A stretch of DNA of 64,000 nucleotides from positions 29,835 through 93,834 of the forward strand of contig CAXPEB010000047.1 in NCBI GenBank assembly GCA_964215915.1, given 5' to 3'. This document shows positions 310-58,530 of the stretch, piece by piece. Both the position numbers and the translations under genes were made by a program. How positions within the stretch are numbered: the first letter of the stretch is position 1; every line of letters begins with the position of its first letter. Under the pieces are notes generated by a model. The model did no database searches. It had not been told where the DNA came from and saw nothing but the letters and a program-made list of their open reading frames with translations. The stretch comes from Bacteroidia bacterium. Lineage in GTDB: Bacteria > Bacteroidota > Bacteroidia > UBA8524.

Positions 310-3300
310 ATGAACCCATTTTGTTTTCTGTCCATTATGCTTAGAAACACCCTGTCCAGCTGTGTTAGTCTGGTAATATTATTCGGCTTAACCCCTACCA
401 AGGCTCAAGAACCCTCATACTCGCCACTTACCCATTACATTCAAGAGAATCTTGGTCAGGTTAAGGATCAACACGGTAACCCGCGTCCGGATGTTTTCGT
501 CATCGGAACAGCTGGCCAATTGGGCTTTCATTTGCGGAAATGTGGCATGAGCTATCAGCTTTATCATCAGGGGACTGGCTCAAACGACAAGCCTGAGCAA
601 ATAGACAACGCTTCAAATAATTTGACCATATATCGGTTGGATATGAATTGGCTGAACTGCCAGGGCATGAACCAATTCAAACTGTCAGATGAAAACCCAG
701 GGTATTCCAACTACTACAATGTAGCTCGGGGCATGGAGCCGGCTTTATTTGTTAGAGACTACCGAAAACTGATAGCAAAAAACATTTGGCCTGGTGTGGA
801 TCTTCACCTCAGTGTTCAAGATGAGCAAGTGGAAACCGATTGGTACTTGGAAAAAGCGGCAGATCTCTATCACATTCAAATTGAGATTAAGGGAGCTGAA
901 ATCAGCATAGAAGACGGATGCCTGATCATGAAAACTCCATTTGGAGAAATCAGGGAAGGAAAGCTCAAAGTGCTGCAGGGAAACAAACAACTTAAAGCGC
1001 ATTGGATGCTCAACAATAACATTATTAGTTTTGAGGTAGAAGGCGCTAATCCGGAGCTTCCTCTCATTATTGACCCTCCCACTAGAATATGGAGCAGCTA
1101 TTATGGTGGGACAGGAGAAGAAAAAATAAGCGGCTCCGTAGTCGATAAGAACGAAAACCTGATTGTCGGCGGAAATGCAAATTCGCTGAACCTCACCACG
1201 TACGGAATCCACCAACGCAACTTCGGAGGTGGAGCAAGCGGTTTATTTGTTGGGGATGGATTGGTTGCCAAGTTCAATGATAAAGGCATTCGGATCTGGG
1301 CGACTTATTACGGTGGTAATCAGCCGGATAATGTTTTTTCCGTCACCACAGATTCTTCCGATAACATCTATTTTGTTGGCCGAACCAGATCAGATACGGG
1401 AATCGCTTCCCATGGCGGTCACCAAACCACTTATGGCGGTTGGCTATATGATGGATTCATAGTGAAACTAAATACGAATGGAATTCGGCAGTGGAGCAGC
1501 TACATCGGCGGTTCCAGTAGTGATCAATCCTATTCTTGCGCAATTGATCCGGATCAAAATGTATATATCACAGGCTATTCATATTCCAATACTCAAATTG
1601 CAACACCCGGGGCCTGGCAATATGATGTTGGAGCTATTGGAAGTGATGCATTCCTGATGAAATTCACCCCCGGAGGCACCAAAATCTGGGGAACTTATTT
1701 GGGTGGATCAGGAATGGATCAGGCATACGGATGTACCACAGACGATTCCGGTCACGTATATCTTTGCGGATATGCAGATTGTATCTCGACAATGGGATAC
1801 AATAGCTCACATCAGGACACGAATGCCGGTGGATTTGATGCCTTTCTTTCCAAGTTTGATAGCAGTGGAGCTTTATTATGGAGTACTTATTACGGCGGCG
1901 AAGCAGAAGACATCGCTTATTCTTGTAAAATCGGCAAGGAGGGTAATATTTACTTTGTAGGCACTACCCTGAGTGACTCAAATATTGCTTCTTCCGGGGC
2001 TTTTCAAAACAGGCGGGCAGGAGACCAGGACTTGTTTATTGCTAAATTCGATCCGGGTGGACAATGGTTATGGGGAAGCTACTTCGGTGGCAACGCAGAC
2101 GAAATAACCGACTTCAACAGTCTCACTTTGGACCGGCAGGGGAATATATACTTCACAGGAGGTTCTTTATCAATTACTGGCATTGCCTCCTCCGGAGCGT
2201 ATCAAATGAACAACTCAGGAATAAATGATGCATTTCTGGTAAAATTCACCCGCCAGGGTACACGCGTGTGGTCAACCTATTACGGTGGCAACGGTAATGA
2301 CCTCGGTGGAGCCCTCTGTACAACCAGTGAAGATGAATTGTACATGACCGGAAGTTCATCGACCCAGTCTGGACTCGCAACACCTGGCACCCTGCAATAT
2401 TTAAATGGAGGAGGAACGGATGGATTACTCACAAAATTCCGTGTGATTGAATCCAATACAATTTCCCAAGATCAATTTGTATGTTCCGGAAATGAAGCCC
2501 ATAACTTATTCGGGCCTTCATACTCCAATGCCGGTTTTACCTATCGGTGGCTAAAATCTGTTACCGATTCTCTCTCTGGTTTTTATGCAGCTGGAGGGAA
2601 CGACTCATCTTCAACATATAGCCCCGGAGTAATTATCCAAAAAACCTGGTACAAAAGGGTGCTGTCGCAGCATAGCATCCACGATACCTCGAATGTAGTG
2701 CTGCTCCAACCTGCAACGTTTCCAACTGCACATGCTTTGTTATTGGACGACAGCCTTTGTTTTGGCGACTCTTTAAGAATCTTTGATCTTAGCAATTTTA
2801 ACGGAGATAGTGCCTTAAGCTTAAATTGGTTTTGGCATGATACCCTGCTTGGCTCTGGTGACACATTTTCCTTCCTCCCTGCGACCGTTGGCATTGATAG
2901 TATTCAACTCATCGTAACCAGTAATAAAGGGTGTGCCGATACGACCTCATTCTCGTATCACCTTTTTAGGATTGACCATCGCAAGGTCCTACAGTCAGAT
3001 TCAGGCGCACTATGCCCCGGAGATTATCGACTGTTATATTCAACCATAGACCCCGGCTTAACTTTTGACTGGATTCACAATGGACAAAGCATTAAGCAAG
3101 GTATCGATAGCTCCATTCTCGTAAATGATACCGGATCCTATTGGATTAACATTTCCTCACAGGAAGGGTGTTATGCACTCAGTGACACCTTGAATCTGGT
3201 TTATGCGGAACTGCCTGAATTGACACTGCACTCAGATGAGAGTTCTCTTTGTCAAAACACCTGGATTTATGTCACTGACACCACACAGAGTAGCCCTGCC

Positions 3301-4191
3301 TATCAAAGAAAATGGTGGCTGGACGGACAATTACATGGTTCCACAAAATCCATTCATCTCCAACTTACGGACACGGGTGAGCACTGGTTCGTGTTAAGAG
3401 CAGAAACAGCAACTGGGTGTTCGGTGTCTGACTCTCTGTCTGTTATGGTGATATCAAACCCGCAGATCATGGGTCTTAATGGCGTCGTTACGAATACCAG
3501 AATCGATTCATCCTACTTATATACTTCCCTGGCCCAAACTGCGCAAACCTATATCTGGACGCTTAACGAAGGACACTTGATTTCCGGACAAGGAACGAAT
3601 CAGGCAACTATCAATTGGAACGACACAACCAAAGGAGGAATCTCTCTTTTGGTAACTTCCCAAGAAGGTTGTATGGATAGTACACACTATGCTGTGACTA
3701 TGGATTTGGCACCGGCAATCTATCAATTCAGCCCGCAAAACGGAAAACAGGGGGATACGATCAGCGTAGAGGGAGTGAATTTTACCCGCACCACTTTTGT
3801 TTCTGTTGGCGGCGTCATGACTCAATCCTATCAGATTCAAGACCATCGCCATCTTACCGCTATTTTGGGAACCGGAGATGATGGAAAGGTTCGTGTAGAA
3901 ACCCCATATGGAAATGCTGAATTAGGCACCTTTAACTTCCAGGGAGTTTCAGCACGCCCCATCCGGAAAGAGCAATTCCGTATTTATCCAAACCCCGTAT
4001 ACAATCACCTATACATTGAAAGGATAGGAAGTCAACAAAGCATATTCTTTGAGTTGTATGATGCAAATGGACGGCTAATTAAATCAGGGGAACACTCAGA
4101 GGGCATGGTTGCTTTAGACACAGAAGAATTATCTGCGGGGTTATATTTCTTATATATTGAAGGGCAAAGGTTTACGGTTGAGAAATATTAG
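310..4191 (+). CDS. Large secreted cell-surface protein: SBBP-type beta-propeller repeats, IPT/TIG-like domain and type-A T9SS C-terminal sorting domain
   Basis: 1293-aa ORF. The true start is probably ATG 337 (MLRNTLSS..., signal peptide ending TKAQ). More than 12 tandem ~50-aa repeats have a W.(S/T)YYGG ... D ... GN.Y..G core. The C-terminus FRIYPNPVYNHLYIE...GLYFLYIEG fits the T9SS CTD pattern. Confidence 0.8.
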   Translation: MNPFCFLSIMLRNTLSSCVSLVILFGLTPTKAQEPSYSPLTHYIQENLGQVKDQHGNPRPDVFVIGTAGQLGFHLRKCGMSYQLYHQGTGSNDKPEQIDNASNNLTIYRLDMNWLNCQGMNQFKLSDENPGYSNYYNVARGMEPALFVRDYRKLIAKNIWPGVDLHLSVQDEQVETDWYLEKAADLYHIQIEIKGAEISIEDGCLIMKTPFGEIREGKLKVLQGNKQLKAHWMLNNNIISFEVEGANPELPLIIDPPTRIWSSYYGGTGEEKISGSVVDKNENLIVGGNANSLNLTTYGIHQRNFGGGASGLFVGDGLVAKFNDKGIRIWATYYGGNQPDNVFSVTTDSSDNIYFVGRTRSDTGIASHGGHQTTYGGWLYDGFIVKLNTNGIRQWSSYIGGSSSDQSYSCAIDPDQNVYITGYSYSNTQIATPGAWQYDVGAIGSDAFLMKFTPGGTKIWGTYLGGSGMDQAYGCTTDDSGHVYLCGYADCISTMGYNSSHQDTNAGGFDAFLSKFDSSGALLWSTYYGGEAEDIAYSCKIGKEGNIYFVGTTLSDSNIASSGAFQNRRAGDQDLFIAKFDPGGQWLWGSYFGGNADEITDFNSLTLDRQGNIYFTGGSLSITGIASSGAYQMNNSGINDAFLVKFTRQGTRVWSTYYGGNGNDLGGALCTTSEDELYMTGSSSTQSGLATPGTLQYLNGGGTDGLLTKFRVIESNTISQDQFVCSGNEAHNLFGPSYSNAGFTYRWLKSVTDSLSGFYAAGGNDSSSTYSPGVIIQKTWYKRVLSQHSIHDTSNVVLLQPATFPTAHALLLDDSLCFGDSLRIFDLSNFNGDSALSLNWFWHDTLLGSGDTFSFLPATVGIDSIQLIVTSNKGCADTTSFSYHLFRIDHRKVLQSDSGALCPGDYRLLYSTIDPGLTFDWIHNGQSIKQGIDSSILVNDTGSYWINISSQEGCYALSDTLNLVYAELPELTLHSDESSLCQNTWIYVTDTTQSSPAYQRKWWLDGQLHGSTKSIHLQLTDTGEHWFVLRAETATGCSVSDSLSVMVISNPQIMGLNGVVTNTRIDSSYLYTSLAQTAQTYIWTLNEGHLISGQGTNQATINWNDTTKGGISLLVTSQEGCMDSTHYAVTMDLAPAIYQFSPQNGKQGDTISVEGVNFTRTTFVSVGGVMTQSYQIQDHRHLTAILGTGDDGKVRVETPYGNAELGTFNFQGVSARPIRKEQFRIYPNPVYNHLYIERIGSQQSIFFELYDANGRLIKSGEHSEGMVALDTEELSAGLYFLYIEGQRFTVEKY

Positions 4192-9793: not shown

Positions 9794-12700
9794 TTGCTTA
9801 GCAACGGAATGAAAAACTTACTGATCCTCTTATTACTCTCCTTCCATACCCTGTGTGCCCTGGCCCAACCCGGCACCAACGACAGCACGTTTAACCTTAT
9901 TGATCCTGGCTATTCGAATGGACTCGGACCGGATGATCAGATAAGGTCAGTGGCCCTTCAAAACGACGGAAAAGTACTGATAGGCGGCTATTTCACGCAA
10001 TTCAATGAAAAAACCATCAAGCGGATCGCAAGAATCCATGACGGGGTTCCGGATACTTCCTTCAAAACAGGAAACGGCTTCAATGATTACGTGCAATGTA
10101 TTGTTCTGCAAAGCGACGGCAAAATACTGGTAGGAGGCGACTTCACCTCCTACAACGGCGTGACCCGGAACCGGATCGCCAGACTGAATACCGATGGCAG
10201 CCTGGACATGTCCTTTAACCCCGGTAACGGCCCCAACAGCCTGGTAAGAAGTATCGCCATACAAAGCGACGGAAAAATTGTGATTGCCGGAAATTTCACC
10301 ACGTATAGCGGGACGGGTAGAAGCCGGATAGCACGACTGAACAGCAATGGCTCACTGGACAATTCCTATGACCCCGGTTCAGGCTTCAATAGTGCCGTTT
10401 ACAGCATCGGCATTCAGGCCAATGATAAAATCGTGGCCGTGGGTGCCTTTACGCTTTTTGATGGCACCACACGCGAGCGGGTTGCCCGACTTGAAACCGA
10501 TGGGACGCTTGATTTGTCTTTCTTGCCTGGCTTTGGATTTGATAAGACGGCCTATTCCCTGGCACTCGCTCCCAACGGCAATATTGTGGTCGGCGGAGAC
10601 TTCGATTATTTCAACGGAACGGCCCGCAACCGCATAGCCGTGATTGATTCCGGCGGAACCCTGGCAGGTTCGTTTAACCCCGGTAGTGGCTTTAACTCGA
10701 GCGTTTATTCGCTAAGGGTACAGGCCGATGGAAAAATTCTGGCTGGAGGATCTTTTAGCTCGTATGATGGAAATACCGCCAATAAAATCATTCGGCTGGA
10801 GGCTACGGGCAATGAAGACTCCGGCTTTCATGCCGGATCGGGTTTTGGTGGCAGCGGAGGCAATGTCGTTTACTCCATTCAAGTCCACCCGGATGGAAGA
10901 ATCGTGGCAGGAGGAATTTTCCCGAGCTACAATGGCCAGTCGAGAAATAATGTGGTAAGGTTGTTTTCCGACGGCACTCCCGACTATTCGCTCAACAGGT
11001 ATACGGGTTTCAGCGGAAAGGTAAGAAGTATCGTCGTGCAAAAAGACGGTAAAATACTGGCCGGTGGCGACTTCCGGTTTTATAACGGGGTGGAACGCTC
11101 GGGCATCGCCCGCCTGAACAGCGACGGCACGCTGGATACCGGTTTTGCCGTTGGCACCGGCATTAACTACAATATTGCCTATACCGGTGTTCATTCCCTG
11201 TTGTTGCAGGATGACGGAAAGATACTGGTAGGGGGTGACTTCTTTGACTACAACGGAAGCACGGTAAGCGGTTTGATCCGCTTGCATCCGGACGGAACGC
11301 TGGATACCACTTTCAAGACCGGAACCGGCGTGGGCGCGGGGTCCATTTATCATATGGCACTTCAAAGTGATGGCAAAATCATTATCGGCGGTAGTTTTAA
11401 CTCTTATGGTGGCTCTATCAGCTACAAAATCGCACGGATCCATACGGACGGAAGCAGGGACACCTCCTTCAATACCGGGGTATTTCCATATTCCGGGTTT
11501 GATCAGGATGTTAAGGCGCTTGTTATACAACCCGACGGGAAGATCCTGGTGGGTGGTGGTTTCAGCAGATACCGGAATACCTTTGTCAGCAACCGTATCC
11601 TCAGACTAAACCCGGATGGAAGCCTGGACCCCAACTTTTTGCAAACCAATGGCTTCAGCGGAGGAGGGGTTGAGACAATCGGCCTGCAGGCTGATGGCAG
11701 GATCGTGGTGGGTGGAACATTCACTTCCTTCAACGGCACAGCCAGAAACAAAATGGCAAGGGTGGAATCTGACGGAACACTGGATGCCTCCTTCTATCCC
11801 GGAAGCAATGGCTTTAACGGGACGGTAAGTGAGCTGATCGTGCAGGGCGACGGGAAGATTCTGGCCGCCGGAACATTTACCCAATACAACCTGGTCGATT
11901 ATAAACGTATTATACGACTCAACTCAAACGGAACGGTCGATAACGGGATCGACTTCCATACGGGGTTCCCCGATGATGTAGAGACCATTGCCTTACAGCC
12001 CGATGGGAAAATCCTGGCCGGAGGAGTCTTTACTTCGTTTGATGGCTATGGAAGAAACCGGATTGCCCGTATTAACAACACCTGTGTTCCCAACCTGATC
12101 GTGATTGGCGCTTCTGCCTGCGACAGCTTTGTGTTCAACAACCAAACGTACAAGGCCTCTGGGATTTACCAACAGCAGTTCACCAATGCCTATGGCTGCG
12201 ATTCCACCATTCAGCTTAACCTGACAGTACACGCTTCTAGCGGCAGCAACCTCATAATCACCGCCTGTGATACGTTTGCTTTCCTGGGTCAGCAATACAC
12301 CAGCTCCGGTATTTATACCCATGTGATACCCAACAGCGTCGGTTGCGATTCCACCATTACCCTGGACCTCACCATTAACAACAGCACGTCGCAAAGTATT
12401 ACCACCAGCGCATGCAGCAGCTATATACTGAATGGACAGACGTATACCGCTTCGGGCACTTATGTTCAGATGATGACGAACATGGCGGGTTGTGATTCCA
12501 TTATCACGCTGAATCTGACTATTAACGACGCGGATACGGGTGTAAGCCGCACAGGCCCCAACACTTTGCAGGCTAATGCCATCGGGGCCGTGTATCAGTG
12601 GATTGATTGTGACAATACCACCACCCCAGAAATACCCGGTGCTACCGGCAGGACTTTTACGGCTACCCAGAATGGGCGCTATGCGGTACGCGTGACCGAG

Positions 12701-13003
12701 AATAGCTGCACTGGCACTTCTGCCTGTCATACCATTAATAGTGTAGGTATCGAAGACCCGCTGATCCCGAAGGTGGCTCTTTACCCCAATCCGGCAGGTT
12801 CCACAGTAACTCTGGTGTCCGAGGCCCCGCTGAATGGTGCAGACATCCGGCTGAGAACCATGGACGGCAGGCTGATCGGGGAAGAAACTGCCGTGGAGGG
12901 TTCGGTACATACCCTTGACCTGACTCGCCTGGCTCCCGGCATCTACCTGGTTGAAATAACCCAACAACACAGCGTGCTGCGAATCAAACTTGTGAAGGAG
13001 TAG
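9794..13003 (+). CDS. Delta-60-repeat cell-surface protein with cysteine-containing repeats and a type-A T9SS C-terminal domain
   Basis: 1069 aa with a signal peptide. About 13 tandem repeats carry DGKILVGGDF..YNG..RNRIARLN.DGSLD.SFNPG (delta-60 repeat pattern). Four ~60-aa repeats then have C..F.F.GQ.YT.SGIY......N..GCDS.I.L.LT. The C-terminus ALYPNPAGSTVTLV...GIYLVEI fits a T9SS CTD. Confidence 0.8.
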   Translation: MLSNGMKNLLILLLLSFHTLCALAQPGTNDSTFNLIDPGYSNGLGPDDQIRSVALQNDGKVLIGGYFTQFNEKTIKRIARIHDGVPDTSFKTGNGFNDYVQCIVLQSDGKILVGGDFTSYNGVTRNRIARLNTDGSLDMSFNPGNGPNSLVRSIAIQSDGKIVIAGNFTTYSGTGRSRIARLNSNGSLDNSYDPGSGFNSAVYSIGIQANDKIVAVGAFTLFDGTTRERVARLETDGTLDLSFLPGFGFDKTAYSLALAPNGNIVVGGDFDYFNGTARNRIAVIDSGGTLAGSFNPGSGFNSSVYSLRVQADGKILAGGSFSSYDGNTANKIIRLEATGNEDSGFHAGSGFGGSGGNVVYSIQVHPDGRIVAGGIFPSYNGQSRNNVVRLFSDGTPDYSLNRYTGFSGKVRSIVVQKDGKILAGGDFRFYNGVERSGIARLNSDGTLDTGFAVGTGINYNIAYTGVHSLLLQDDGKILVGGDFFDYNGSTVSGLIRLHPDGTLDTTFKTGTGVGAGSIYHMALQSDGKIIIGGSFNSYGGSISYKIARIHTDGSRDTSFNTGVFPYSGFDQDVKALVIQPDGKILVGGGFSRYRNTFVSNRILRLNPDGSLDPNFLQTNGFSGGGVETIGLQADGRIVVGGTFTSFNGTARNKMARVESDGTLDASFYPGSNGFNGTVSELIVQGDGKILAAGTFTQYNLVDYKRIIRLNSNGTVDNGIDFHTGFPDDVETIALQPDGKILAGGVFTSFDGYGRNRIARINNTCVPNLIVIGASACDSFVFNNQTYKASGIYQQQFTNAYGCDSTIQLNLTVHASSGSNLIITACDTFAFLGQQYTSSGIYTHVIPNSVGCDSTITLDLTINNSTSQSITTSACSSYILNGQTYTASGTYVQMMTNMAGCDSIITLNLTINDADTGVSRTGPNTLQANAIGAVYQWIDCDNTTTPEIPGATGRTFTATQNGRYAVRVTENSCTGTSACHTINSVGIEDPLIPKVALYPNPAGSTVTLVSEAPLNGADIRLRTMDGRLIGEETAVEGSVHTLDLTRLAPGIYLVEITQQHSVLRIKLVKE

Positions 13004-13066: not shown

Positions 13067-14653
13067 CTAAGACCCGAAACTCAATTGAAGGGTATGACCC
13101 GGCGAATGTGGCCCGGTGAGATATCCCTTAAACGGCAATCTGGAATGCATCACCAGAATTCCGCCCTTGGGTATCCGTACCGGAATTTCGGCCCCTTGCT
13201 GAATGAGCAACTCAATCTCGTACGGAGTCAACTCTCTGTGGTGCAAACCCTTTATGATACGCAGGGAGGTTTGTTCATTACGGTTTTCTCTAAGCTGTAT
13301 CCGTATGACCAAAGAATTACGGTCATTCGACAGCTGTTGCCAACCCTTCCTAACTTCCGGAGCACTATAGTAAGGGTTAAACTCAGCCCAAACATGTTCC
13401 GGACTAAGATTAGAACTCTTTAGGATTTGATCGATAGATTCTTTGTGCCACAGGGATTTGGTCAGTTCTGCCAGCTTCTCCGGCGGTATACCCGGGTTTT
13501 CGGCACAAAGCCTATGGGCCTGACTCCTTAAATGACGGCATTCGCGCTCTGTGTAAACCTGTTCCAACACATGATACCCCTTCTTTGCCAGGATGGAAGG
13601 AAGTTTTTGAATAACCTCTCCATTCATTTCCATCCGGTAATGATTCAGGCCCGCTTCAATCCGATCAAACAAGCGCTTGCGAAGCCTGGAGGGTTCCAAA
13701 ACCCGAATAGTCTCTCCCAATCCCAGTAACACCTTCTCCAGTTCAAAGTTGTGCTGCACCTGCATTTCGAAGATCATCCCAAAATGATTTCGTTCCACCA
13801 ACTTCTGACTGGCATGCAGAGGCTTGGTAAGCAGATAGGGCGCTGATTCCATTGTGGCAAAGAAGCGAACCGTTTCAGGAATAGCCTGCGGGCTTACCGT
13901 TACACCGATGACATTTTTAAAATAGTTCCGGAAAAAGTCCTCTTCCTCTAACTGCGACTCCTCATCCATAATTTTAACACCCTCCATCCTATCCAGGGCC
14001 AGTAACTGATAGCTTCGGCTAGTTTCTCTGTGACCCAATACAAACCAACGGTTCTGGTACTCCTTCAATAGCCCGGGATGAAACAAGATATTTTGAGCTG
14101 CTCTGGCTTTGAAAGACTGGTAGGTAATCAGAGTCTGTTTCTTGTTCATTATTGCGTTATACAATACTTCCATCCAGTGCAGGCCCTTCAGATTTTCGTT
14201 TGACTCAAGATCTATAATGGGTCTACCCTTGGTGCGGGAAACCTGTACTTTGTCTTCGAGTCGCTGTACGATTCCTCCCAGATCTTCAAAATGAGAAAAC
14301 CCTTTAAACTGCTTGAGCAAATTGACGGCCTCGGTCAGTTTGTTCAAGTCCTGATCAGTTAGCGGGATATTGGTGATGGAATATTCAGGGTCTTCGTAGC
14401 TGTAGTATTTCTTGTCTGTGATGATGATCGGCGCGTTATATCCCAGTTTTTCACTTCGCATCATCTGGATGTCCATCTGTACGGTGCGCCGGCTTACTCC
14501 TTTATCAATTCCTTCGAATTCGTATAGCGCCTCGGAACAAGCATCGATAAGATCCTCAAGAGTCCATTTTCGGTACCTGTTTTTCAGGCAGTTATCGATG
14601 GTGGTATAGCGCAGGAGAGCATTGCGATTAACGGGCATGGTGAAAATTTTCAA
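13067..14653 (-). CDS. HTH-WYL-WCX family transcriptional regulator with an additional ~190-aa C-terminal domain
   Basis: 528 aa. The layout is an N-terminal winged-HTH region, then a WYL-type domain (LITYQSFKARAAQNILFHPGLLKEYQNRWFVLGHRE), then a WCX-like segment (IRVLEPSRLRKRLFDRIEAG). The unassigned C-terminal part contains WHKE and ...ILVMHSRLPF motifs. Confidence 0.75.
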   Translation of the reverse strand: MKIFTMPVNRNALLRYTTIDNCLKNRYRKWTLEDLIDACSEALYEFEGIDKGVSRRTVQMDIQMMRSEKLGYNAPIIITDKKYYSYEDPEYSITNIPLTDQDLNKLTEAVNLLKQFKGFSHFEDLGGIVQRLEDKVQVSRTKGRPIIDLESNENLKGLHWMEVLYNAIMNKKQTLITYQSFKARAAQNILFHPGLLKEYQNRWFVLGHRETSRSYQLLALDRMEGVKIMDEESQLEEEDFFRNYFKNVIGVTVSPQAIPETVRFFATMESAPYLLTKPLHASQKLVERNHFGMIFEMQVQHNFELEKVLLGLGETIRVLEPSRLRKRLFDRIEAGLNHYRMEMNGEVIQKLPSILAKKGYHVLEQVYTERECRHLRSQAHRLCAENPGIPPEKLAELTKSLWHKESIDQILKSSNLSPEHVWAEFNPYYSAPEVRKGWQQLSNDRNSLVIRIQLRENRNEQTSLRIIKGLHHRELTPYEIELLIQQGAEIPVRIPKGGILVMHSRLPFKGYLTGPHSPGHTLQLSFGS

Positions 14654-14945
14654 AAAAATCCGAAAAAGAATTTAACTGCGCAAAAAGACTGCGCAGTTGC
14701 TCCTAACCTTTGAATTGTGAAACACGAACAAAAAGGAATTCGGCCCCGCTCTTCAAATTGAAGAGTGGGTTGCGAAAAAGGAGGTTTCACTTGTTCATTG
14801 ACATATCCGCATAGTGATATAAAGATCTTTCCGAAAGGAAAGCGCAGATGTTTTCAGGTACGGACCTGCTTCCGGTTTCTGTATAGCCGGAAAGTGCTCT
14901 AAGGAGTATGCTACTTGTCCTGAAATTGATTTGTGTCCAACGCGT

Positions 14946-15047
14946 GTCGGGGGTTCGATTCCCTCTCCTATAGTTTAGGGTAGCTCAGTTGGTAGAGCAG
15001 CGATGTAACGCAGGTTCGAATCCTGCACTCAGTTTTGGTCTGAGTTT
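14946..15047 (+). ncRNA. tRNA-like element that is not a canonical tRNA; candidate Y-RNA-like (YrlA-type) tRNA mimic
   Basis: The first T-arm-like segment is GGGGG-TTCGATT-CCCTC (14949-14965). A canonical D-arm GCTC-AGTTGGTA-GAGC follows at 14983-14998. Only 11 nt later comes a perfect T-arm GCAGG-TTCGAAT-CCTGC (15010-15026). A hairpin ACTCAG-TTTTGGT-CTGAGT plus TTTG follows at 15027-15048. No anticodon stem-loop fits, because the D-stem and T-stem are separated by 11 nt where about 23 are needed. No 7-bp acceptor stem can be paired. Confidence 0.4.
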
Positions 15048-15351
15048 GATTAATGGTTGAATCAACATCCCATGGACTCCAAATCCATCACCGGGACCGC
15101 CTGTCCCCAAATAAGGCAATTGTATCCGGGCGGGAAAAGAGAAACAGAGCGGTGCTTCGGCACCAATCACGGAGTTCCGGGCCGGAAACGGCAGATACCG
15201 CAGGACGACGCGTTTTTCAGGTGATCGCATCCATTCCAGAATGCATTCGGTTGCAGTAAAAATGCCGGTGACTGCTCAAGCAGGTTCCCGCCCCGAAAAC
15301 CGGTTTCTCTTTCCCCCGCCCTATTAAATGAAAATGTAAAAGTAGATTGAT

Positions 15352-16449
15352 ATGAAAAAAGTAATCGTAACACCGGGTCTGGTAGGCTTGGTTTACAAAA
15401 ACGGAAAAACAGAACGTGTATTGACTGAAGGAACCTACTGGATATCCTTGTGGTCTGAAGTGCGCATGTTTGCGATGAACCTGGCATTTCAACCGAAAGA
15501 GAGTCTGGAAGTAGCCTTGCAATCGGAAGTTTTGCAACCCTACCTTGAAATAGTAGAGGTGAAAGAAGGAGAAATCGCTCTGCGTTATGAAAACAACCGT
15601 TTTGTCGGGGTTCTTTTTGCCGGTAAGCATGCTTACTGGAAAGGACTGATCGATTACCGTTTCATCATCGACAATATGGAAAACTGCCGTATTCGTCCGG
15701 AAATCGAAAGAAACATTTTGCGCTACCCGGCCTTTGGGTCATTAACCCGGACATTCCGTGTTGACTCATACTGCAAGGCAGTGTTAAGTATAGAAGGAGA
15801 GGAAGACAAGATTCTTGAACCGGGAGAATACCTGTTCTGGAACAACCGTAAGGTTATCTCCGTTATTCCGGTGGATATGCGTTCTCAGATGATGGAAGTT
15901 TCCGGACAGGAACTGCTTACCCGCGATAAAGCAAGCCTTCGGTTAAGTTTATTTGCTTCCATCCGGGTAAATGATATCCGCAAAGCGGTATTGGAAAATA
16001 CAGCCTACTCCAAACAGGTATACACCATCCTGCAATTGGCCATTCGTGAATTTGTCGGGACCAAAAGCCTGGATGAAATCCTGGAGAACAAGGAGATGAT
16101 TTCCGACTACGTGATGAAAAACAGCAAAGCTGCCATTGCGGAAACCGGAGTAGAGTTAAGCAGCTGCGGGGTTCGTGACATCATCCTTCCGGGAGAAATG
16201 CGCGAGATCTTTAATAAGGTGCTGATTGCGGAGAAACAAGCCGCAGCCAACGTAATCATGCGCCGGGAAGAAACCGCATCCACCCGTTCCCTGTTGAACA
16301 CCGCCAAACTGATGGAAGAAAACGAAGTGCTCTTCCGTCTGAAGGAAATGGAATACGTGGAACGTATCGCCGAAAAAATCGGGAACCTGAGCGTTACCGG
16401 TAACGGAACCCTGATCTCACAGTTAAAAGAGATTTTTGTAAATAAGTAG
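15352..16449 (+). CDS. SPFH/band-7 (stomatin/prohibitin-like) domain protein, soluble, co-operonic with rtcB
   Basis: 365 aa. The C-terminal two thirds show an SPFH core pattern (VDMRSQMMEVSGQELLTRDKASLRLSLFASIRVNDIRKAV...CGVRDIILPGEMREIF) followed by a coiled coil. There is no hydrophobic N-terminal anchor. The N-terminal region looks like partial SPFH-like duplications. The stop lies 17 bp before rtcB. Confidence 0.75.
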   Translation: MKKVIVTPGLVGLVYKNGKTERVLTEGTYWISLWSEVRMFAMNLAFQPKESLEVALQSEVLQPYLEIVEVKEGEIALRYENNRFVGVLFAGKHAYWKGLIDYRFIIDNMENCRIRPEIERNILRYPAFGSLTRTFRVDSYCKAVLSIEGEEDKILEPGEYLFWNNRKVISVIPVDMRSQMMEVSGQELLTRDKASLRLSLFASIRVNDIRKAVLENTAYSKQVYTILQLAIREFVGTKSLDEILENKEMISDYVMKNSKAAIAETGVELSSCGVRDIILPGEMREIFNKVLIAEKQAAANVIMRREETASTRSLLNTAKLMEENEVLFRLKEMEYVERIAEKIGNLSVTGNGTLISQLKEIFVNK

Positions 16450-16465
16450 CGGCTGGGGACCACAC

Positions 16466-17902
16466 TTGGTGGTCCCCATTATGATTGAATTCATGACTAT
16501 TACAAGCGAAGAACTGATAAAATGGAATATTCCAAAAGGCCCGGAATTCGGAATCTGCCTTGATATTTTGAATGCTCTGGATGAAAAATCCTGGAGCAAG
16601 AAGTCTGCGAAACAGGAAATCGATAAAATCTTATCAAACCCGGAAACAAAAAGTCATCCGGCATTTAATGCCCTGAAACAAGTGGTAATACAACGCGAGG
16701 CCAATAAAACCATTGCCGTGGCTGAAAAGGCAAGCAGTTATACGATTTATGGAGAAGAAGGAATAGAAGCGGGAGCTCTGAAGCAAATGGATACTGTGAT
16801 GCGTCTTCCCATTTCCCGTGCCGGAGCATTGATGCCAGACGCACACCAGGGTTACGGTTTACCCATTGGCGGAGTATTGGCTACGGAAAACACCATTATC
16901 CCTTACGGAGTGGGTGTGGATATAGGATGCCGTATGTGCCTGAGCATCTTCGATATCCCGGCAATCCATATAGAACAAAACCGGGAACGTCTGAAAACAG
17001 TTCTAAACCGGAGCTCCAAATTCGGCAAAGCTGTATTCCAAAAACCGCAGGATCATGAAGTACTGGCCAGCCCCTTGTTTAATGAGATTCCATTATTAAG
17101 GGCCCTTCAGGAAAAAGCAGCCAGGCAGATAGGCAGCTCCGGAGGAGGAAACCATTTTGTGGAATTTGGGATATGTGAAATAGTGGATCAAGACAACGAA
17201 TTGGGAATTCAGCCAGGCCAATACTTGTCATTACTCAGCCATTCCGGATCACGCGGACTCGGAGCCAGCATTGCCGGGCATTATACCCGGCTTGCCAAAA
17301 CACAGACCAGGTTGCCGGATGAGCTAAAACACCTGGCATGGCTTAATCTTGATAGTGAGGCGGGACAGGAATACTGGCTGGCAATGAACCTGGCAGGAGA
17401 CTATGCCAGCGCCTGTCATCATCAGATACACGCCAAAGTTGCCCGTGACTTTCAGCTGGAACCTTTGGCCATGGTTGAAAACCACCACAATTTTGCCTGG
17501 AAAGAAACCCTTGAAGATGGAAAGGAATACATTATTCACCGAAAGGGAGCTACACCGGCCGGAAAAGGGGTCTTAGGAATAATTCCTGGCTCCATGACTG
17601 CGCCTGGCTTTATTGTACGTGGGAAAGGGCTCTCAGACTCGTTGAATTCCGCCTCCCACGGAGCAGGCCGGGCCATGTCACGTACCCAAGCAAAGAACTC
17701 ATTGAATGCAAAGGATATGGTTAAACATCTCCAGGACCAGGGAGTTGATTTAATTGGTTCAGGCTTGGATGAGGCACCAATGGCGTATAAAAACATCCAT
17801 GACGTAATGGAAGCACAGAAAGACCTGATAGAAGTGCTGGGAACCTTCCTTCCCAAAGTGGTTCGAATGTGCGGCGACGAAGGTTTCCGGGAAGTGGATT
17901 GA
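16466..17902 (+). CDS. rtcB: RNA-splicing ligase RtcB (3-prime-phosphate / 5-prime-OH RNA ligase)
   Basis: 478 aa with the conserved RtcB motifs MPDAHQGYGLPIGGV, GGGNHFVEFG, HNFAWKE and HGAGRAMSR. A ~100-aa N-terminal extension is not typical of the core enzyme. Several alternative start codons fall in the first 10 codons. Confidence 0.85.
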   Translation: MVVPIMIEFMTITSEELIKWNIPKGPEFGICLDILNALDEKSWSKKSAKQEIDKILSNPETKSHPAFNALKQVVIQREANKTIAVAEKASSYTIYGEEGIEAGALKQMDTVMRLPISRAGALMPDAHQGYGLPIGGVLATENTIIPYGVGVDIGCRMCLSIFDIPAIHIEQNRERLKTVLNRSSKFGKAVFQKPQDHEVLASPLFNEIPLLRALQEKAARQIGSSGGGNHFVEFGICEIVDQDNELGIQPGQYLSLLSHSGSRGLGASIAGHYTRLAKTQTRLPDELKHLAWLNLDSEAGQEYWLAMNLAGDYASACHHQIHAKVARDFQLEPLAMVENHHNFAWKETLEDGKEYIIHRKGATPAGKGVLGIIPGSMTAPGFIVRGKGLSDSLNSASHGAGRAMSRTQAKNSLNAKDMVKHLQDQGVDLIGSGLDEAPMAYKNIHDVMEAQKDLIEVLGTFLPKVVRMCGDEGFREVD

Positions 17903-24036: not shown

Positions 24037-24111
24037 ATGAGCCGAATAAAATGTGTAATCGGCTCATGTTTTGGGTATATTTGAGCCGAATAGCGTACCT
24101 AATCGGCTCAT
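24037..24111. promoter_or_regulatory. Two tandem copies of an imperfect palindrome ATGAGCCGAAT-N9-AATCGGCTCAT upstream of and overlapping the fic start
   Basis: Copy 1 spans 24037-24067 and copy 2 spans 24082-24111. The arms are TGAGCCGAAT / AATCGGCTCA. The second copy ends in the fic ATG. Confidence 0.5.
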
Positions 24112-25240
24112 GCGTTATAACTGGCAACAAACAGACTGGCCCCATTTTCAGTATGATTCGGCGATACTGGAAGGTCTACTCTTCAAGCTGACCGAACAAA
24201 TGGGTAAGCTCAGGGGTGTAATGAAAGCGCTGCCTGAAGATACCCGCATGGAAGCTATTATCGATACCATGGTATCCGAAGCGATTAAAACTTCAGAGAT
24301 CGAAGGAGAATACCTCAGTCGCGAGGATGTAAAATCTTCCATACGGAATAAACTGGGATTGAATAGTCCTCCTGAAAAAGTTTCTGATAAAAAGGCCCGG
24401 GGAGCCGGGGAACTGATGGTAGCCGTCCGGAATACCTTTTCCGAACCGCTGACAGAACAAATGCTTTTTGACTGGCACCGGCTTTTATTACAAAGTGATC
24501 CGGACATCCATACCGGAGCCTGGCGTACTCATGAAGAACCCATGCAGGTAGTGTCCGGTACTCTTGACAAACAACGCATCCATTTCGAAGCCCCTCCATC
24601 CGCAAAAGTTCCCGGAGAAATGAAACGGTTTATTGATTGGTTCAATGACTCGTCCTCCATTGAAGGTCCGGAAATCAAAAATGCTCCGATCAGAGCAGCT
24701 TTGGCTCACCTGTATTTTGAGAGTATACACCCCTTTGAAGATGGCAACGGACGCATCGGGCGGGCCATTGCCGAGAAAGCCCTTTTACAGGGTTATGGTC
24801 ATCCTTTACTACTAAGCTTATCGGCAACCATTGAGGCAAATAAGAAGGAGTATTACCATTCGCTGGAAAAAGCGCAACAAAGCAATGACGTGACTGCCTG
24901 GACGGAATATTTCCTTAATACCGTCTTGTCCGCAGAAAAGTCGGCAGAAGAGCAGATTGATTTCATCCTCGGTAAGGCTCGTTTTTTTGATCGTTACAAG
25001 GGAATACTCAATCAAAGACAACTCACCGTGTTAAGGCGTATGCTGCAGGAAGGCCCCCAAGGTTTCAAAGGAGGTATGTCAGCCAGGAAATACAGGGCCA
25101 TTGCCCAGATCTCAAAGGCAACGGCAACGAGAGACATGCAACACTTGGCGGAAATAGGGGCCTTTAGACCGGTTGGTGCCGGTCGCAGTGCCCGGTATGA
25201 AATCGTACTACCCGACTCCGGTTCCGGCGAAATTCTTTAG
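24110..25240 (+). CDS. fic: Fic family protein (AMPylase-type fido domain with DUF4172-like N-terminus)
   Basis: The Fic motif HPFEDGNGRIGR is present. The N-terminus MRYNWQQTDWPHFQYD is typical of DUF4172-Fic proteins. A C-terminal winged-helix-like tail is present. The ORF is listed from 24071, but the ATG at 24110 matches the family N-terminus. Confidence 0.85.
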   Translation: MRYNWQQTDWPHFQYDSAILEGLLFKLTEQMGKLRGVMKALPEDTRMEAIIDTMVSEAIKTSEIEGEYLSREDVKSSIRNKLGLNSPPEKVSDKKARGAGELMVAVRNTFSEPLTEQMLFDWHRLLLQSDPDIHTGAWRTHEEPMQVVSGTLDKQRIHFEAPPSAKVPGEMKRFIDWFNDSSSIEGPEIKNAPIRAALAHLYFESIHPFEDGNGRIGRAIAEKALLQGYGHPLLLSLSATIEANKKEYYHSLEKAQQSNDVTAWTEYFLNTVLSAEKSAEEQIDFILGKARFFDRYKGILNQRQLTVLRRMLQEGPQGFKGGMSARKYRAIAQISKATATRDMQHLAEIGAFRPVGAGRSARYEIVLPDSGSGEIL

Positions 25241-25256
25241 TCGGATACTACACCCC

Positions 25257-26285
25257 TTAAGCTTCTATCACTGTAATTCCGCTCAAATCCGCATGCTCCT
25301 TCTTCAGGAAAGCATACGTCAACTTATCCGCTTTGCAGTCAACAAACCGGATCTTCTTCATTTTCTTGTTGTGTTTGAAGAAGGTATTGATAAGCGTTGC
25401 ATTCCGGAAGATAACCCCGCTAAACCCACAGTTTTCAAAAAGGCACTCTTCTATGGTGCCTTCAAAAACGACGTCGGCAATATGCATGGAACGAAAAGAG
25501 GTACGATTCCATACGGCACCTGTTACCGTATTGTTTCCGAAACCACCGGATTTAAGTTCCACTCCCGTAAAATCAGAGTCAGAGAAATCGCAACCCTCAA
25601 CATAGCTCCGCAAAAATTCCGTTTCTATCAGCGAGCACCCATTAAAGGTGTTATTGGACAGGTTTGAACTCTGAATCTTGCTTCTGCTGATATCAGAACC
25701 GGAGAAGTCACAGCTCTCCACATTATTGCTTTTCAATAGAAGCCCCGACAAATCCGAGCCAACGAACAGGCACCGCTGCATATTGGAAGAAGCGAATTTT
25801 TCATGCAGGTTTTTCAACCCGGAGAAGTCCGTATCCACCAGGTTCTCACGCGACATGTCCCAACTACGCCTTTTCCCCTGTCCATTCCCCGACTCAGGCT
25901 GTGTACCGGATGAGACTTCCTCGTTCGCTTCCTCAGGCACCGTGTGTTGAAGGTCTTTGGAAAAGTAGTTGAGGTCGACACCCAGAATTTCTGCGAGTCG
26001 GTTGAAGGTAATGATATCCGGCATGGATTCTCCGCGTTCCCATTTCCCAACCGCCTGCGCACTGATAAACAAGCGCTCGGCAAGCTGGGCCTGTGAAATA
26101 CCGAATTTTTTACGGGCCTCCGTAATGCGTTCACCGATCCTTTTTGTACTTAGCATAGCTGTTTCTTTTTTGACCCTACAAAGGTATTGGCAGCTTTTCC
26201 CGGATTCCTGAAAACAAGCAACACTTCTGGTTGTAATTCCGCTACTTATAGTGGTAATCTGACAACTGTTGGTGGTATTTGACAA
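25257..26285 (-). CDS. XRE-family HTH domain fused to a pentapeptide-repeat domain
   Basis: 342 aa. The N-terminus has an HTH_XRE signature (RITEARKKFGISQAQLAERLFISAQAVGKWERGESMPDIITFNRLAEILGVDLNYF). A linker follows. About 160 aa then carry A(D/N)LxX-type pentapeptide repeats (CDFSGSDISRSKIQSSNLSNNTFNGCSLIETEF...). Confidence 0.75.
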   Translation of the reverse strand: MSNTTNSCQITTISSGITTRSVACFQESGKSCQYLCRVKKETAMLSTKRIGERITEARKKFGISQAQLAERLFISAQAVGKWERGESMPDIITFNRLAEILGVDLNYFSKDLQHTVPEEANEEVSSGTQPESGNGQGKRRSWDMSRENLVDTDFSGLKNLHEKFASSNMQRCLFVGSDLSGLLLKSNNVESCDFSGSDISRSKIQSSNLSNNTFNGCSLIETEFLRSYVEGCDFSDSDFTGVELKSGGFGNNTVTGAVWNRTSFRSMHIADVVFEGTIEECLFENCGFSGVIFRNATLINTFFKHNKKMKKIRFVDCKADKLTYAFLKKEHADLSGITVIEA

Positions 26286-27193: not shown

Positions 27194-30100
27194 TTATGGA
27201 GAAAGTACGATACGCCGGTTATGATAAAGCCCATTGCTGTGTACATGCACCAGGTAAACACCGGGACTCAGGTCGGATACTTTCACACGTACCTTTCTAT
27301 CACTGAGGGACTCCGTACGAATAGCCACGGCTTTGCCGGTCATGTCGGTCAGCTCCAAGGAGAAGTCACTTGCGAAAGGCTCGTCCATTTCCACCGTAAA
27401 GGTGTTTACTGCCGGATTCGGGTACATCCGAAAGCCATTCATTTCTCCGACTACCGATACGGATGTGGTACTGTCATCCGGTGCACGCTTCAGCTGGGGT
27501 CCGGGCCATCCATCAATAAAGGCAGGAACTCCGTTTGTCTCTTCATAGAAACAGGTGCTGGTAAAAGAAGGATGAACGGAACCCGACAACTGGCTCTGGG
27601 TCCAATGCGGAAAGGTAGAGACCCACAAGTCGCTGGAAATTCCGGGATCCCAATAGTTACCCGAGGCTTTTACGGCATAAGGTGTGGGAGCAACACCGGT
27701 ATAGAAGGAGCACATGCCCCCGCCACAGTTATCCGGCATTACACCGGTCATAAACAGGTTGGATGCATAGATCCCCGTATTCCGGAACACATTGTCGCCA
27801 TCCTCCAGGTAAGGCTGTGTTTCATAGAGGTTGATTGCCGTACCGTTATTGAAAAAGGCACAGTTACCTCCGTAATTCCCATTGGGGGCATAAGCCGTGC
27901 TCAGGTTCAGGCGGCCGGATCCATGGAAATCCAAACCTGTCAATTCATTGTAGGAAAAGAGGCAACAGGCCGCCGTAAGGTCAATGCTGTTTGCAGTCTG
28001 CTCGGATAAGATGCCGGTCTCGTTATTGGTAAAGCTTACTTCCTCCAGGTAGGTCTCCACCGGGGATGCATTGGAAATAATGATCCCGAAATCGTTGTTG
28101 GAGAAACCGGCCTGGCGAATTTCCGAATTCTGATTTTGCAGGGTGCTCCACCACCCGACGCTATTACCGGTAAAGGTGCAGTTGTAAAGTCCGAGCCCGC
28201 CATAATCGCTGGACAAGCCGATGTAGTTATTTTTAAAGGAGCAATAAGAGAGGGAAGGCTTCGACACAAAGGTGCTCATGTCCATATCGATGCCTTTGTC
28301 CAGATCTCTGAAAGAGCACTGGAAAATATTAGCCAGGTGGGGTTTGGGCAACCACAGCCCGGTATTCGTCGAGCGGCTTACCAGTCCGACAAAATAGGTA
28401 TACTGGAAGTCTGATGTCACAGATACCCTGAGCCTGGAACCGGATCCCACTGCTACCATACCGCCCACGATGTTGAATTCAGCCAGGTAGTCGGTAGCCG
28501 AAAGGGTATTATCGGGTGTACTGAGTGTTCCATTAATAACTTCCAGCACCTTATCCATAAGTAAGCCGGGAATATTGTTCCCGCTCAGGCTGATCTTTCC
28601 GTTAGTGCCCTGGGAGAAAATTCCGGCATTGGGGTCACTCATATCAAAACGGATGAACCCGCCGGTAAACCCGGGGCTCTTGGTAAAGGTGAAGGTAGCT
28701 CCGTTCATGATCTGCAACTCTCCGTGTATCTCCAGCACGGCATTCTCGCCATCCAGGTAGATGCTTGCTCCCGGATGGAAAACCAACCTGGAACTGGCAT
28801 CTATAACCACCTTGCTGTTGTCAGCAATGCGCAGCACGCCTCCATTGCGGATCTCCAGTTTCGCATTGTCGGTGATCAGCAGTTCTCCGGTATTCTGGCT
28901 GGAATTATCTCCTACCTGTAGCAGGCCATCCGACTGTATTTCCACCCCAATGACCGGATAACAGGTAGAGCCACTGGTATAAACTTCGAAATGCGATCCC
29001 GGAACGGGTGCCGGATTATTTCCGTTGGGCGTATTTCCCAGGCTCATGTTGGCATTGATCCCCAGCACTCCTCCTGTCCGGATTTTTATGAAATTGATCC
29101 TTTTCGGAGTACCCTGCCCCATGTTATAGGTATGATTGATTAACTCCACGGAGCCACTGGTATAGGTGAGCAAAGCATCCGGGAGGTCTGCAAAGGATTC
29201 TTTAAAAAACACCTGGTTCAGCGGGGTCCAGTCGGTATGGTAGGTATTGACCGGCACGATATTCCCCGAGCCGTCGTCTTCTTCCTGCCACTGGAAATCA
29301 TCCATATAACTTTCACCGTTCGACCAGGTCTTGGTCAGGTCATCCCAGTTGGAAAGGATCGGGTAGTTCAGGTTGTTTCGGTAGGGAGATTTCAGCGCAC
29401 AGGAACTCACACTTGGAATAAAGCAGATAGCATCCTGGTGGAGCGTAACATTGACAGAAACAAAGGGAAGGCTTGGGATATAGTCGTTCGGGTCCGGGAA
29501 GACAATATCACCCCCGGGAGCGTTATCCAGGGAGGCGGTTCCGTTCACGCGGTTTCGCTTGTAACTTAAAATGGCCGTTCCAACCCCGGCTGCTCCCGGA
29601 ACTCCCACGAAGGAAAAATTCACTACCGTTCCCTGGTAGATAAGCCGGGTACCCTGTGATGGATCCGGAACGGTATTCAATTCAAGGTTGGAGTACAACC
29701 CGGCAAATAAAATGGCATTGGCTCCCGGAATAAACAGATAGTCGCCCACAAAACCCCAGGCCTCGATATCGGCCAAATTAGAATTAGGGGCATAGGGTTG
29801 TCCGGTTCCCCCGTCACAGGCCCCGTTGCTCAGCGCATAATTCCGGATTTGTATCCCCCTGGAACTGACTTGCGACGGAAATTCTCCCATAGCACTCAAC
29901 TCATTATTCAGGGTAATCCGCTCTGCCGACTCTCCAATACCCGAACCCGACTGCAACGAAGAAAGTATCAATTGCTGCGTAGCCGGCGCCAAAGCAGCAT
30001 CTTCCACCACCCCGATCTTTGAGCTGAGATTCTTCATTGGAATATTCTGAATGATAACATAGGGCCCTACATAGAGGTAGAAATACACATTGATATTGGC

Positions 30101-53337: not shown

Positions 53338-53508
53338 GGTCCTTTCCGTTTTAAGGTTTCGTTACTATTCGATCAATGTACGGAAAGAACACTTTGCGGG
53401 GAATAATTCTTGAAAACCCTCTCTTGCCTGGAACAGGAATCATTTGTCGAAAAACAGCAAACGCAAGTAACTCTTCAGACGTATACCTCGTTCCTCAAGC
53501 GGATTACC

Positions 53509-58388: not shown

Positions 58389-58530
58389 ACAATCTCCCCG
58401 TCAATCTAACCTATTTTTTAGTTCTGTCTGTTTACGGCCTCATCCTAATCCGCTTCAGAGGGGCCGAGCGGTTAATCATAAAATTCTTCCTCACATGCAA
58501 CATTCTGCGCCTTCAGGGTTTCTGTCTGGT

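Follow-up and report, generated by a model that had tools for sequence, protein, structure and literature searches.

Why does a gene for the RNA ligase RtcB share an operon with a gene for a soluble SPFH/Band-7 protein, next to a divergent WYL-family regulator and an RNA that mimics tRNA? The question is raised by positions 13067-17902 of the window, the 64,000-nucleotide (nt) stretch of DNA analyzed here, within which all coordinates are counted and which was compared with related DNA by sequence and by models. On sequence comparison, the four parts found there (a WYL regulator gene on the minus strand, and a structured RNA, an SPFH gene and rtcB on the plus strand) are a genuine and widely conserved bacterial cassette, predicted to serve RNA repair, and their adjacency is judged not to be incidental.

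13067-14653, minus strand: WYL-family transcription regulator, HTH-WYL-WCX with a degenerate PhyH-like C-terminus (Pfam, orthologue alignment)
14717-15330, plus strand: whole predicted structured leader or non-coding RNA, ~600 nt (relatives' identity, RNAalifold)
15352-16449, plus strand: soluble SPFH/Band-7 (stomatin-type, 'slipin') protein with three N-terminal beta units (Pfam Band_7, 91.6 bits; AlphaFold)
16466-17902, plus strand: RtcB RNA ligase (Pfam RtcB, 278.5 bits)

The overall layout agrees with a first-pass annotation of the locus, which had placed the regulator on the opposite strand about 700 base pairs (bp) from an operon of adjoining SPFH/Band-7 and rtcB genes. The divergent intergenic region between the WYL and SPFH genes measures 698 nt, and both downstream genes are recognized by Pfam with the scores listed above. 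The spacing of 17 bp given for SPFH and rtcB needs adjustment, although their adjacency stands: the gap is 16 nt for the longest open reading frame (ORF) of RtcB and 43 nt from its probable start. Since RtcB orthologues are 469 residues long, comparison with them suggests that the true start is the ATG at 16493.

Architecture and covariation of the structured RNA

Routine searches pass over this RNA. ARAGORN reported 0 tRNA genes in the 64-kilobase (kb) window and Rfam no family at gathering score; the RNA was revealed only by permissive Rfam searches and a purpose-built covariance model. Within the intergenic region, the permissive searches matched YrlA at 14923-15025 (43.4 bits, E 4e-8, gathering score 69) and tRNA at 14978-15031 (29.0 bits, which is its cutoff, with neither anticodon arm nor acceptor pairing), so the covariance scan proposed in the first-pass annotation did find the element, below and at the respective cutoffs. 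Matches of 35-45 bits to the YrlA model were obtained in 7/7 loci tested. The cloverleaf of a tRNA gene in normal order, with a paired acceptor stem and an anticodon arm, was found at the element neither by ARAGORN nor in the Rfam tRNA alignment.

The fixed architecture emerged from a side-by-side comparison of the upstream regions of related loci. Along the plus strand, a 5' domain is followed by two circularly permuted tRNA-like modules, after which come an H-type pseudoknot and a large 3' domain.

14827-14907, plus strand: 5' domain with hairpins 14827-14842 (GAAA tetraloop), 14855-14868, 14870-14892 (conserved loop UUUCUGUAUAG) and 14896-14907 (compensatory changes, close relatives)
14939-15004, plus strand: tRNA-like module 1, permuted (covariation on 51 loci; Rfam YrlA, 43.4 bits)
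15010-15088, plus strand: tRNA-like module 2, permuted (parse of 51 loci; RNAalifold, all four helices)
15093-15117, plus strand: H-type pseudoknot, stem 1 GGGAC/GTCCC, with loop GCCU pairing with AGGC at 15114-15117 past an A-rich linker
15127-15321, plus strand: 3' domain, closing helix 15127-15145 with 15303-15321 (inverted repeats I1 and I5, compensatory changes)

Module 1 is closed by a 5-bp helix (14939-14943 with 15000-15004), within which follow a variable-loop-like GUGUC (14944-14948), a T arm (14949-14965), a closed acceptor-like hairpin (14966-14980), the dinucleotide UA, a D arm (14983-14998), a single A and the return strand of the helix; it has no anticodon loop. Past a short linker, module 2 presents a T arm (15010-15026), an acceptor-like hairpin (15027-15045), a degenerate D-like arm (15048-15063) and an anticodon-like arm (15072-15088) with the loop CUCCAAA. 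A tRNA-like element with D and T arms and without an anticodon arm had been described at first. The element itself is upheld by the Rfam matches and the missing anticodon arm is not, being supplied by module 2, while the T arm exists in two copies rather than one. The YrlA-like topology ascribed to the mimic (T arm, closed acceptor-like hairpin, D arm) was confirmed. An outer stem of the minimum-free-energy fold, 14928-14939 with 15074-15087, was rejected, as it would destroy the anticodon-like arm that is kept in other loci.

Covariation supports this architecture; it was counted on 51 loci over 25 base pairs drawn from module 1 and T arm 2. Of all cells, 95.1% are paired, as compared to 42-50% when the partners are slid; 22 of the 25 pairs change on both sides, and 0/500 shuffles match the observed values. 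The framework of the anticodon-like loop is kept (Y32 in 37/39 loci, U33 in 36/39, R37 in 34/39), whereas its triplet takes 18 forms in 39 loci. Among four close relatives, the triplet, which reads CCA, UCA, GAU or CAA (CCA in the window, 15079-15081), is the only difference within the 17-nt arm. Such a variable triplet reflects either a lack of constraint or diversifying selection.

Close relatives support the remainder of the fold. Positions 14654-15117 are 83-88% identical to those of relatives in which the flanking genes reach just 66-76% at the nucleotide level, and RNAalifold on 5 close relatives predicts 118 pairs, 44 of them with compensatory changes, recovering the helices of the RNA independently. 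The loop motif UUUCUGUAUAG and its covarying stem are also found across distant loci. Both the position of the pseudoknot and its A-rich linker are common to most loci; stem 2 covaries (GGCCA/TGGCC, GTCAA/TTGAC, GCACC/GGTGC, TGATCA/TGATCG), and the pseudoknot detection score is at least 10 in 71% of loci against 24% of shuffles. The 3' domain holds a UUCG hairpin (15151-15164) and an invariant GAUACCG near 15193-15199, and its closing helix carries compensatory changes in the close relatives L001, L081 and L082, in a stretch of only 46-57% identity. A long closing helix also occurs in many distant loci, where a duplex-energy test on 51 loci (median z -2.7, 20/51 below -3) is noisy and serves as supporting evidence only.

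No terminator-like site was found between the tRNA-like modules and the SPFH start. In place of the transcript of 100-200 nt anticipated at the outset, the analysis predicts a structured RNA of ~600 nt, of which the tRNA-like element is one part and which runs as far as the SPFH start codon. A further GC-rich hairpin, CCCGCTCTTCAA/TTGAAGAGTGGG at 14745-14769, lies between the predicted transcription start and the 5' domain, within a possible helix GTGAAAC/GTTTCAC (14717-14723 with 14784-14790); it is maintained in L001 and L081 through changes that are G-U-compatible on the plus strand.

Distribution and partners of the RNA-SPFH unit

The related loci comprise 80 genome loci selected with an SPFH alignment, to which three closer relatives were added by exact-protein look-up. 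SPFH homologues are abundant, with more than 7,500 matches at E<=1e-10 across all Bacteroidota classes. Module 1 and T arm 2 were combined into a covariance model, R1, which scores 81.8 bits in the window (E 9e-14) and has its sole match in the 64 kb there. R1 reaches at least 50 bits just upstream of SPFH in 74/81 sources across Bacteroidota, 23 of the 74 being outside the seed; the 7 sources that it misses include 2 with almost no upstream sequence. Weaker R1 matches (30-48 bits) fall on pairs of adjacent genuine tRNA genes, which hints that the permuted modules may descend from tandem tRNA genes, a plausible origin.

The protein partners are less constant. An RtcB gene is present in 52/80 loci and some RNA ligase lies within 4.5 kb in 53/80. 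By tblastn, the WYL gene stands upstream of the RNA in 29/80 loci, always divergently, and 28 of these 29 carry RtcB as well. Proteins found by Pfam within 4.5 kb include two further RtcB types, an Rnl1-type ligase, pairs of RlaP nucleotidyltransferases and a small TPR protein. As R1 accompanies SPFH in 74/81 sources, and ligase and regulator occur in fewer loci, the RNA-SPFH pair is, on sequence comparison, the tightest association of the cassette, with ligase and regulator as frequent yet replaceable partners. The co-occurrence of the partners in related loci, which the first-pass annotation made the measure of its proposal, thus extends across Bacteroidota and contradicts an incidental adjacency. 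Likewise, the divergent position in 29/80 loci and a palindrome conserved in 32/32 WYL loci support its assignment of the WYL regulator to the cassette.

Genuine tRNA genes are frequent neighbors of the unit. Arrays of 10-19 tRNA genes lie directly 5' of it in 13 loci, upstream of position ~4000 (L016, L022, L035, L036, L040, L047, L052, L054, L056, L057, L058, L064 and L075), and in about 16 other loci a lone tRNA-Tyr gene precedes module 1 by 150-250 nt. Neither arrangement occurs in the window.

The proteins and their predicted control

The SPFH protein has 365 residues and belongs to a family annotated 'slipin'. It was modeled with AlphaFold from a 63-sequence alignment (predicted local distance difference test, pLDDT, 82); three five-stranded beta units at the N-terminus precede the SPFH domain, and long helices make up the C-terminal part. 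The model contains no membrane anchor, hydrophobic N-terminal helix or transmembrane helix; its N-terminus is a beta-strand with pLDDT 83-92, in support of the earlier description of the protein as soluble. As in the SPFH/stomatin family, the SPFH domain is followed by an oligomerising helix, and the closest structures are cage-forming subunits of stomatin, HflK/C and prohibitin, while the longest alignments to the whole model are those of the major vault protein. Within residues 1-175 (15352-15876), the first of the tandem beta units gives a weak Band_7 match of its own.

All three RtcB motifs noted originally (MPDAHQGYG, GGGNHFVEFG and HGAGRAMSR) are in the translation, the metal- and GMP-binding histidine motifs are present, and the relatives in the PDB are the P. 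horikoshii, T. thermophilus and human RtcB proteins. No PADLOC model matches the SPFH protein or RtcB.

The ORF of the WYL regulator encodes 528 residues. Pfam places WYL (37 bits) and WCX (34 bits) above their cutoffs and a weak HTH at residues 52-84 (HTH_11, E 0.043); searched by itself, the C-terminus matches PhyH at 21.3 bits. A PDB sequence search with the protein gave no match. The N-terminus is the best-conserved stretch of the alignment and, because orthologues align from MPVNRNAL, the ATG at 14638 is the probable true start. The orthologues in L083 (555-2282), L006 (1876-3621), L021 (258-1982), L008 and L037 are fused to an intact PhyH Fe(II)/2-oxoglutarate dioxygenase domain (HQD...H...R). 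The equivalent part in the window (13070-13636, minus strand) lacks the HxD motif and about 30 residues, and the Pedobacter and Sphingobacterium copies have no PhyH domain. We know of no previous description of a WYL-PhyH fusion.

Between the regulator and the RNA lie two short predicted control elements.

14674-14698, no strand assigned: predicted WYL operator, inverted repeat AACTGCGCAA-aaagaC-TGCGCAGTT (conserved in WYL loci)
14705-14712, plus strand: predicted Bacteroidota -7 promoter box AACCTTTG (fixed 12-nt spacing from operator to TTTG)

The 9-bp inverted repeat, ACTGCGCAA-N5-7-TTGCGCAGT, occurs in 32/32 WYL loci, the window included, at 37-74 nt from the WYL start codon. It is found in 9/52 loci without an adjoining WYL gene as well, mostly at the RNA promoter, and the site at 14674-14698 is the only one of its type in the window. 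A palindrome thus conserved beside the regulator's own gene, at a fixed distance from the -7 box, is the predicted binding site of the WYL protein. TTTG follows the repeat by exactly 12 nt in 36 of ~52 sites across the phylum. Bacteroidota promoters have the consensus TAnnTTTG at -7, of which TTTG is the invariant part; the repeat would thereby take the -33 place of the plus-strand promoter, and no -33 box is present at the 14705-14712 promoter, where the operator sits at that position. Transcription is predicted to start at ~14717-14720, a position suited to one transcript of the ~600-nt structured RNA, SPFH and then rtcB. PafBC activates by substituting for a missing -33 contact. By analogy, the invariant spacing suggests that the WYL protein is an activator that substitutes for the absent -33 contact, with repression as the other possible mode.

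An earlier promoter reading, GTTCATTGA (14793-14801) with TATAAAGA (14818-14825), was dropped because the geometry of operator, 12 nt and TTTG places a better-supported promoter ~100 nt upstream. For GTTCTTTGA, an RNA element and a second promoter are both possible readings. The motif GTTC(T/A)TTGA at 14793-14801 is kept in the leader of distant loci, at equivalent positions in most, and could likewise be an RNA motif or a further promoter element. A scan with the sigma-70 consensus found no promoter, as expected for Bacteroidota. Additional operator copies, again 12 nt from TTTG, lie between SPFH and the ligase gene in L010 (5785), L018 (5759), L020 (5686), L021 (5653), L025 (5780) and L007 (5675), carried by Flavobacteriia and Reichenbachiella. 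Given the operator directly upstream, the ligase would there have its own regulated promoter; it is of the Rnl1 type in L018 and rtcB in the others. In L006, L007, L008, L037 and L041, the regulated promoter drives a tRNA-Tyr gene first, then the RNA, SPFH and RtcB.

Elsewhere in the window, a Fic/DOC protein with DUF4172 (24071-25240, plus strand) lies beside a convergent HTH_3-pentapeptide-repeat protein (25257-26285, minus strand); they may be a toxin-regulator pair, unrelated to the RNA-repair cassette. The window also holds an unusually dense set of eight very large proteins (310-4191, 9794-13003, 27194-31429, 31889-34855, 37552-42072, 46255-48798, 53410-55701 and 58255-60582). Type IX secretion sorting domains (Por_Secre_tail or CHU_C) are carried by the seven that were scanned, all but 9794-13003.

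Proposed mechanism, alternatives and relation to known systems

Our preferred reading, which we hold with somewhat better than even confidence, is a stress-inducible, WYL-controlled operon of the Band-7/RtcB type in which RNA repair is carried out by the tRNA-mimic RNA together with RtcB and a soluble SPFH assembly. The WYL regulator would bind the operator repeat, and its WYL domain would sense a nucleic-acid-derived damage signal and switch the operon on. The RNA, probably released from the leader, would then assemble with a soluble SPFH ring or cage. Its tRNA-shaped modules would serve to bring in RtcB, whose place is taken in relatives by another ligase or by the RlaP nucleotidyltransferase; they may recruit broken tRNAs as well. 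The resulting particle would act as a platform for repair, comparable to the complexes of Ro60 with Y RNA or of vault protein with vault RNA. A bolder version is a tentative possibility: the ~600-nt RNA would be an undescribed class of large, ornate RNA and the dedicated RNA subunit of a soluble, vault-like SPFH cage, its two permuted mimics docking interchangeable RNA ligases and broken tRNAs, its 'anticodon' engaged in an arms race with anticodon nucleases, and the WYL protein acting as an RNA-damage switch.

Several points weigh against the repair-platform reading. Every member of the cassette is known from sequence and models alone, and RNA binding by the SPFH protein is something we infer. 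The choice between activator and repressor for the WYL protein follows from geometry only, and promoter and start site are predicted from a consensus. In 27/80 loci no ligase lies within 4.5 kb, and the RNA-SPFH pair may have a function apart from ligation. The tRNA-like RNA predicted for related operons, b7a-tRNA, is given as still unvalidated in a citing account (bioRxiv 10.1101/312249). Finally, the RNA may act only in cis, as neither a terminator nor a processing site separates it from the SPFH coding region.

This last point leads to the main rival, a purely cis-acting leader rather than a particle subunit. As sensor or attenuator, the leader would control translation or elongation that proceeds into SPFH-rtcB, for example through contact with tRNAs or with a tRNA-binding factor. 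We regard this rival as rather unlikely. It agrees with an RNA that is always on the same strand and directly upstream of SPFH with no terminator-like site between them, and with a conserved A/U-rich stretch of the AAAUGAAAAUG type that comes after the 3' strand of the closing helix, whose end lies ~30 nt ahead of the start codon. However, known leaders are far smaller than this RNA, which has ~600 nt, at least 15 helices and two complete tRNA mimics. The RNA-SPFH pair is also kept in loci whose downstream genes are different or missing, and in many loci the RNA is co-transcribed with tRNA genes, which are processed. Cis and particle roles can, moreover, coexist. Less probable again is a sentinel or decoy substrate, whose anticodon-like loop would be cut by anticodon nucleases so that the cut RNA titrates the toxin or feeds WYL sensing until RtcB re-seals and resets it. 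The conserved Y32, U33 and R37 framework fits this idea, as does the triplet, the sole variable part of the arm among close relatives, and the activation of RtcR by tRNA halves (PMC7790460) offers an analogy. Nonetheless, a free triplet is equally explained by lack of constraint, module 1 is without any anticodon loop, and no nuclease gene is linked to the locus. To our knowledge, the WYL ligands identified so far are not defined tRNA fragments but single-stranded nucleic acids, which also weighs against a sentinel.

Two simpler explanations fare worse. That the RNA is an ordinary YrlA-type Y RNA, with Ro60/Rsr encoded elsewhere in the genome and the SPFH adjacency secondary, seems very improbable: YrlA is the best Rfam match and shares the order of T arm, acceptor and D arm, but the gathering score is not reached in the window (43.4 of 69 bits) or in six relatives (35-45 bits), and in most relatives the model matches the tRNA-like part only (model positions ~23-88) and not the Ro-binding stem. 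The Ro60-binding motif GNCGAAN0-1G has no match in 14654-15351, a domain scan of the window ORFs of at least 200 residues found no TROVE/Rsr, and in 74 sources the RNA accompanies the SPFH gene. The same scan found neither RtcA nor RtcR, in agreement with the earlier proposal of an RNA-repair-type module without Ro. It is scarcely credible that the modules are decayed, functionless remnants of tandem tRNA genes in an incidental position. The weak R1 matches on genuine tRNA gene pairs and the tRNA genes or arrays just upstream in many relatives would suit such remnants, but the strong covariation, the fixed position phylum-wide and a conservation above that of the neighboring coding sequence contradict an unconserved pseudogene, the outcome against which the first-pass annotation had set its proposal.

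The system is widespread and now well delimited, though not new in kind. If RNA, SPFH cage and ligase do assemble into one particle, bacteria would have their own counterpart of the Ro-Y RNA and vault ribonucleoproteins, and soluble SPFH proteins would gain a concrete function. The present analysis supplies the boundaries and secondary structure of the RNA, the sequence of the operator and a predicted promoter. Cultured carriers of the cassette include Chryseolinea serpens DSM 24574, Pedobacter caeni DSM 16990, Sphingobacterium arenae, Reichenbachiella versicolor and Algibacter lectus.

Comparison with known systems sharpens these assignments. Like the vault (major vault protein and vault RNA), the modeled SPFH protein has beta-repeat units, an SPFH-like shoulder and a long helix, and it is accompanied by a dedicated structured RNA, small in the vault. 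It differs in its three short repeats, its length of 365 residues and a sequence and fold nearest to stomatin, and its cage is a prediction; on the model, the likeness is a resemblance and not membership. With PafBC, DriD, BrxR and CapW, the WYL regulator shares the HTH-WYL-WCX order, a palindromic operator by its own gene (predicted here) and control of a damage or defence operon. Its target, by contrast, is an RNA-repair operon, many orthologues carry the extra PhyH-type dioxygenase domain, and the operator stands, at fixed spacing, where a Bacteroidota promoter would have its -33 box. The RtcR-RtcA-RtcB system of E. coli and Salmonella (PMC7790460) likewise is an inducible rtcB operon with a dedicated, divergently encoded, nucleic-acid-sensing regulator, but that regulator is CARF-AAA+-HTH with sigma-54 rather than HTH-WYL-WCX, and the window has no RtcA. 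YrlA (RF02553; Salmonella rsr-yrlBA-rtcBA, PMC4201824) has the same order of T arm, acceptor-like stem-loop and D arm, the same closing helix in place of the anticodon stem, and rtcB nearby. The window RNA differs in lacking the Ro-binding stem, the GNCGAA motif and rsr, in scoring under the Rfam threshold, in its far larger size, in a second module with a full anticodon-like arm and in having an SPFH protein as partner. By sequence comparison, the cassette is neither a YrlA/Rsr system nor an Rtc system nor a tRNA gene.

The closest precedent is itself a prediction. The abstract of the 2016 study by Burroughs and Aravind reportedly casts SPFH/Band-7 modules, together with 'a novel tRNA-like molecule', in the role of scaffolding cofactors. 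According to the discussion in the citing account, that study found RtcB in certain bacteria to adjoin a Band-7 protein and a predicted tRNA-like RNA, b7a-tRNA, and YrlA occasionally to adjoin a Band-7 gene (bioRxiv 10.1101/312249); RlaP was named in the same study (PMC12776372). No other paper of the literature searched names b7a-tRNA, and the literature searched holds no statement on a WYL regulator with RtcB or Band-7. As in the b7a-tRNA system so far as the citing account describes it, a soluble Band-7 gene here adjoins the rtcB ligase gene, a predicted tRNA-like RNA lies beside the Band-7 gene, a scaffold with an RNA cofactor for ligation is the proposed role, and the partners, RlaP among them, are modular. 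There, however, b7a-tRNA is said to strongly resemble authentic tRNA, whereas the mimic in the window consists of two permuted modules in a ~600-nt RNA that also has a pseudoknot and a large 3' domain; that discussion makes no mention of the WYL regulator, the operator or the linkage to tRNA-Tyr genes or tRNA arrays. In the literature accessible, outside which the 2016 primary paper lies, there is no description of a ~600-nt composite RNA of permuted modules with a free triplet, of the WYL operator and promoter geometry, of the PhyH fusion or of the link to tRNA-Tyr genes and tRNA arrays. The first-pass view that the whole combination was undescribed thus does not hold for the core of Band-7, RtcB and b7a-tRNA, which, going by the citing account, has been known as a computational prediction since 2016, while the operator and the RNA's extended architecture are possibly new.

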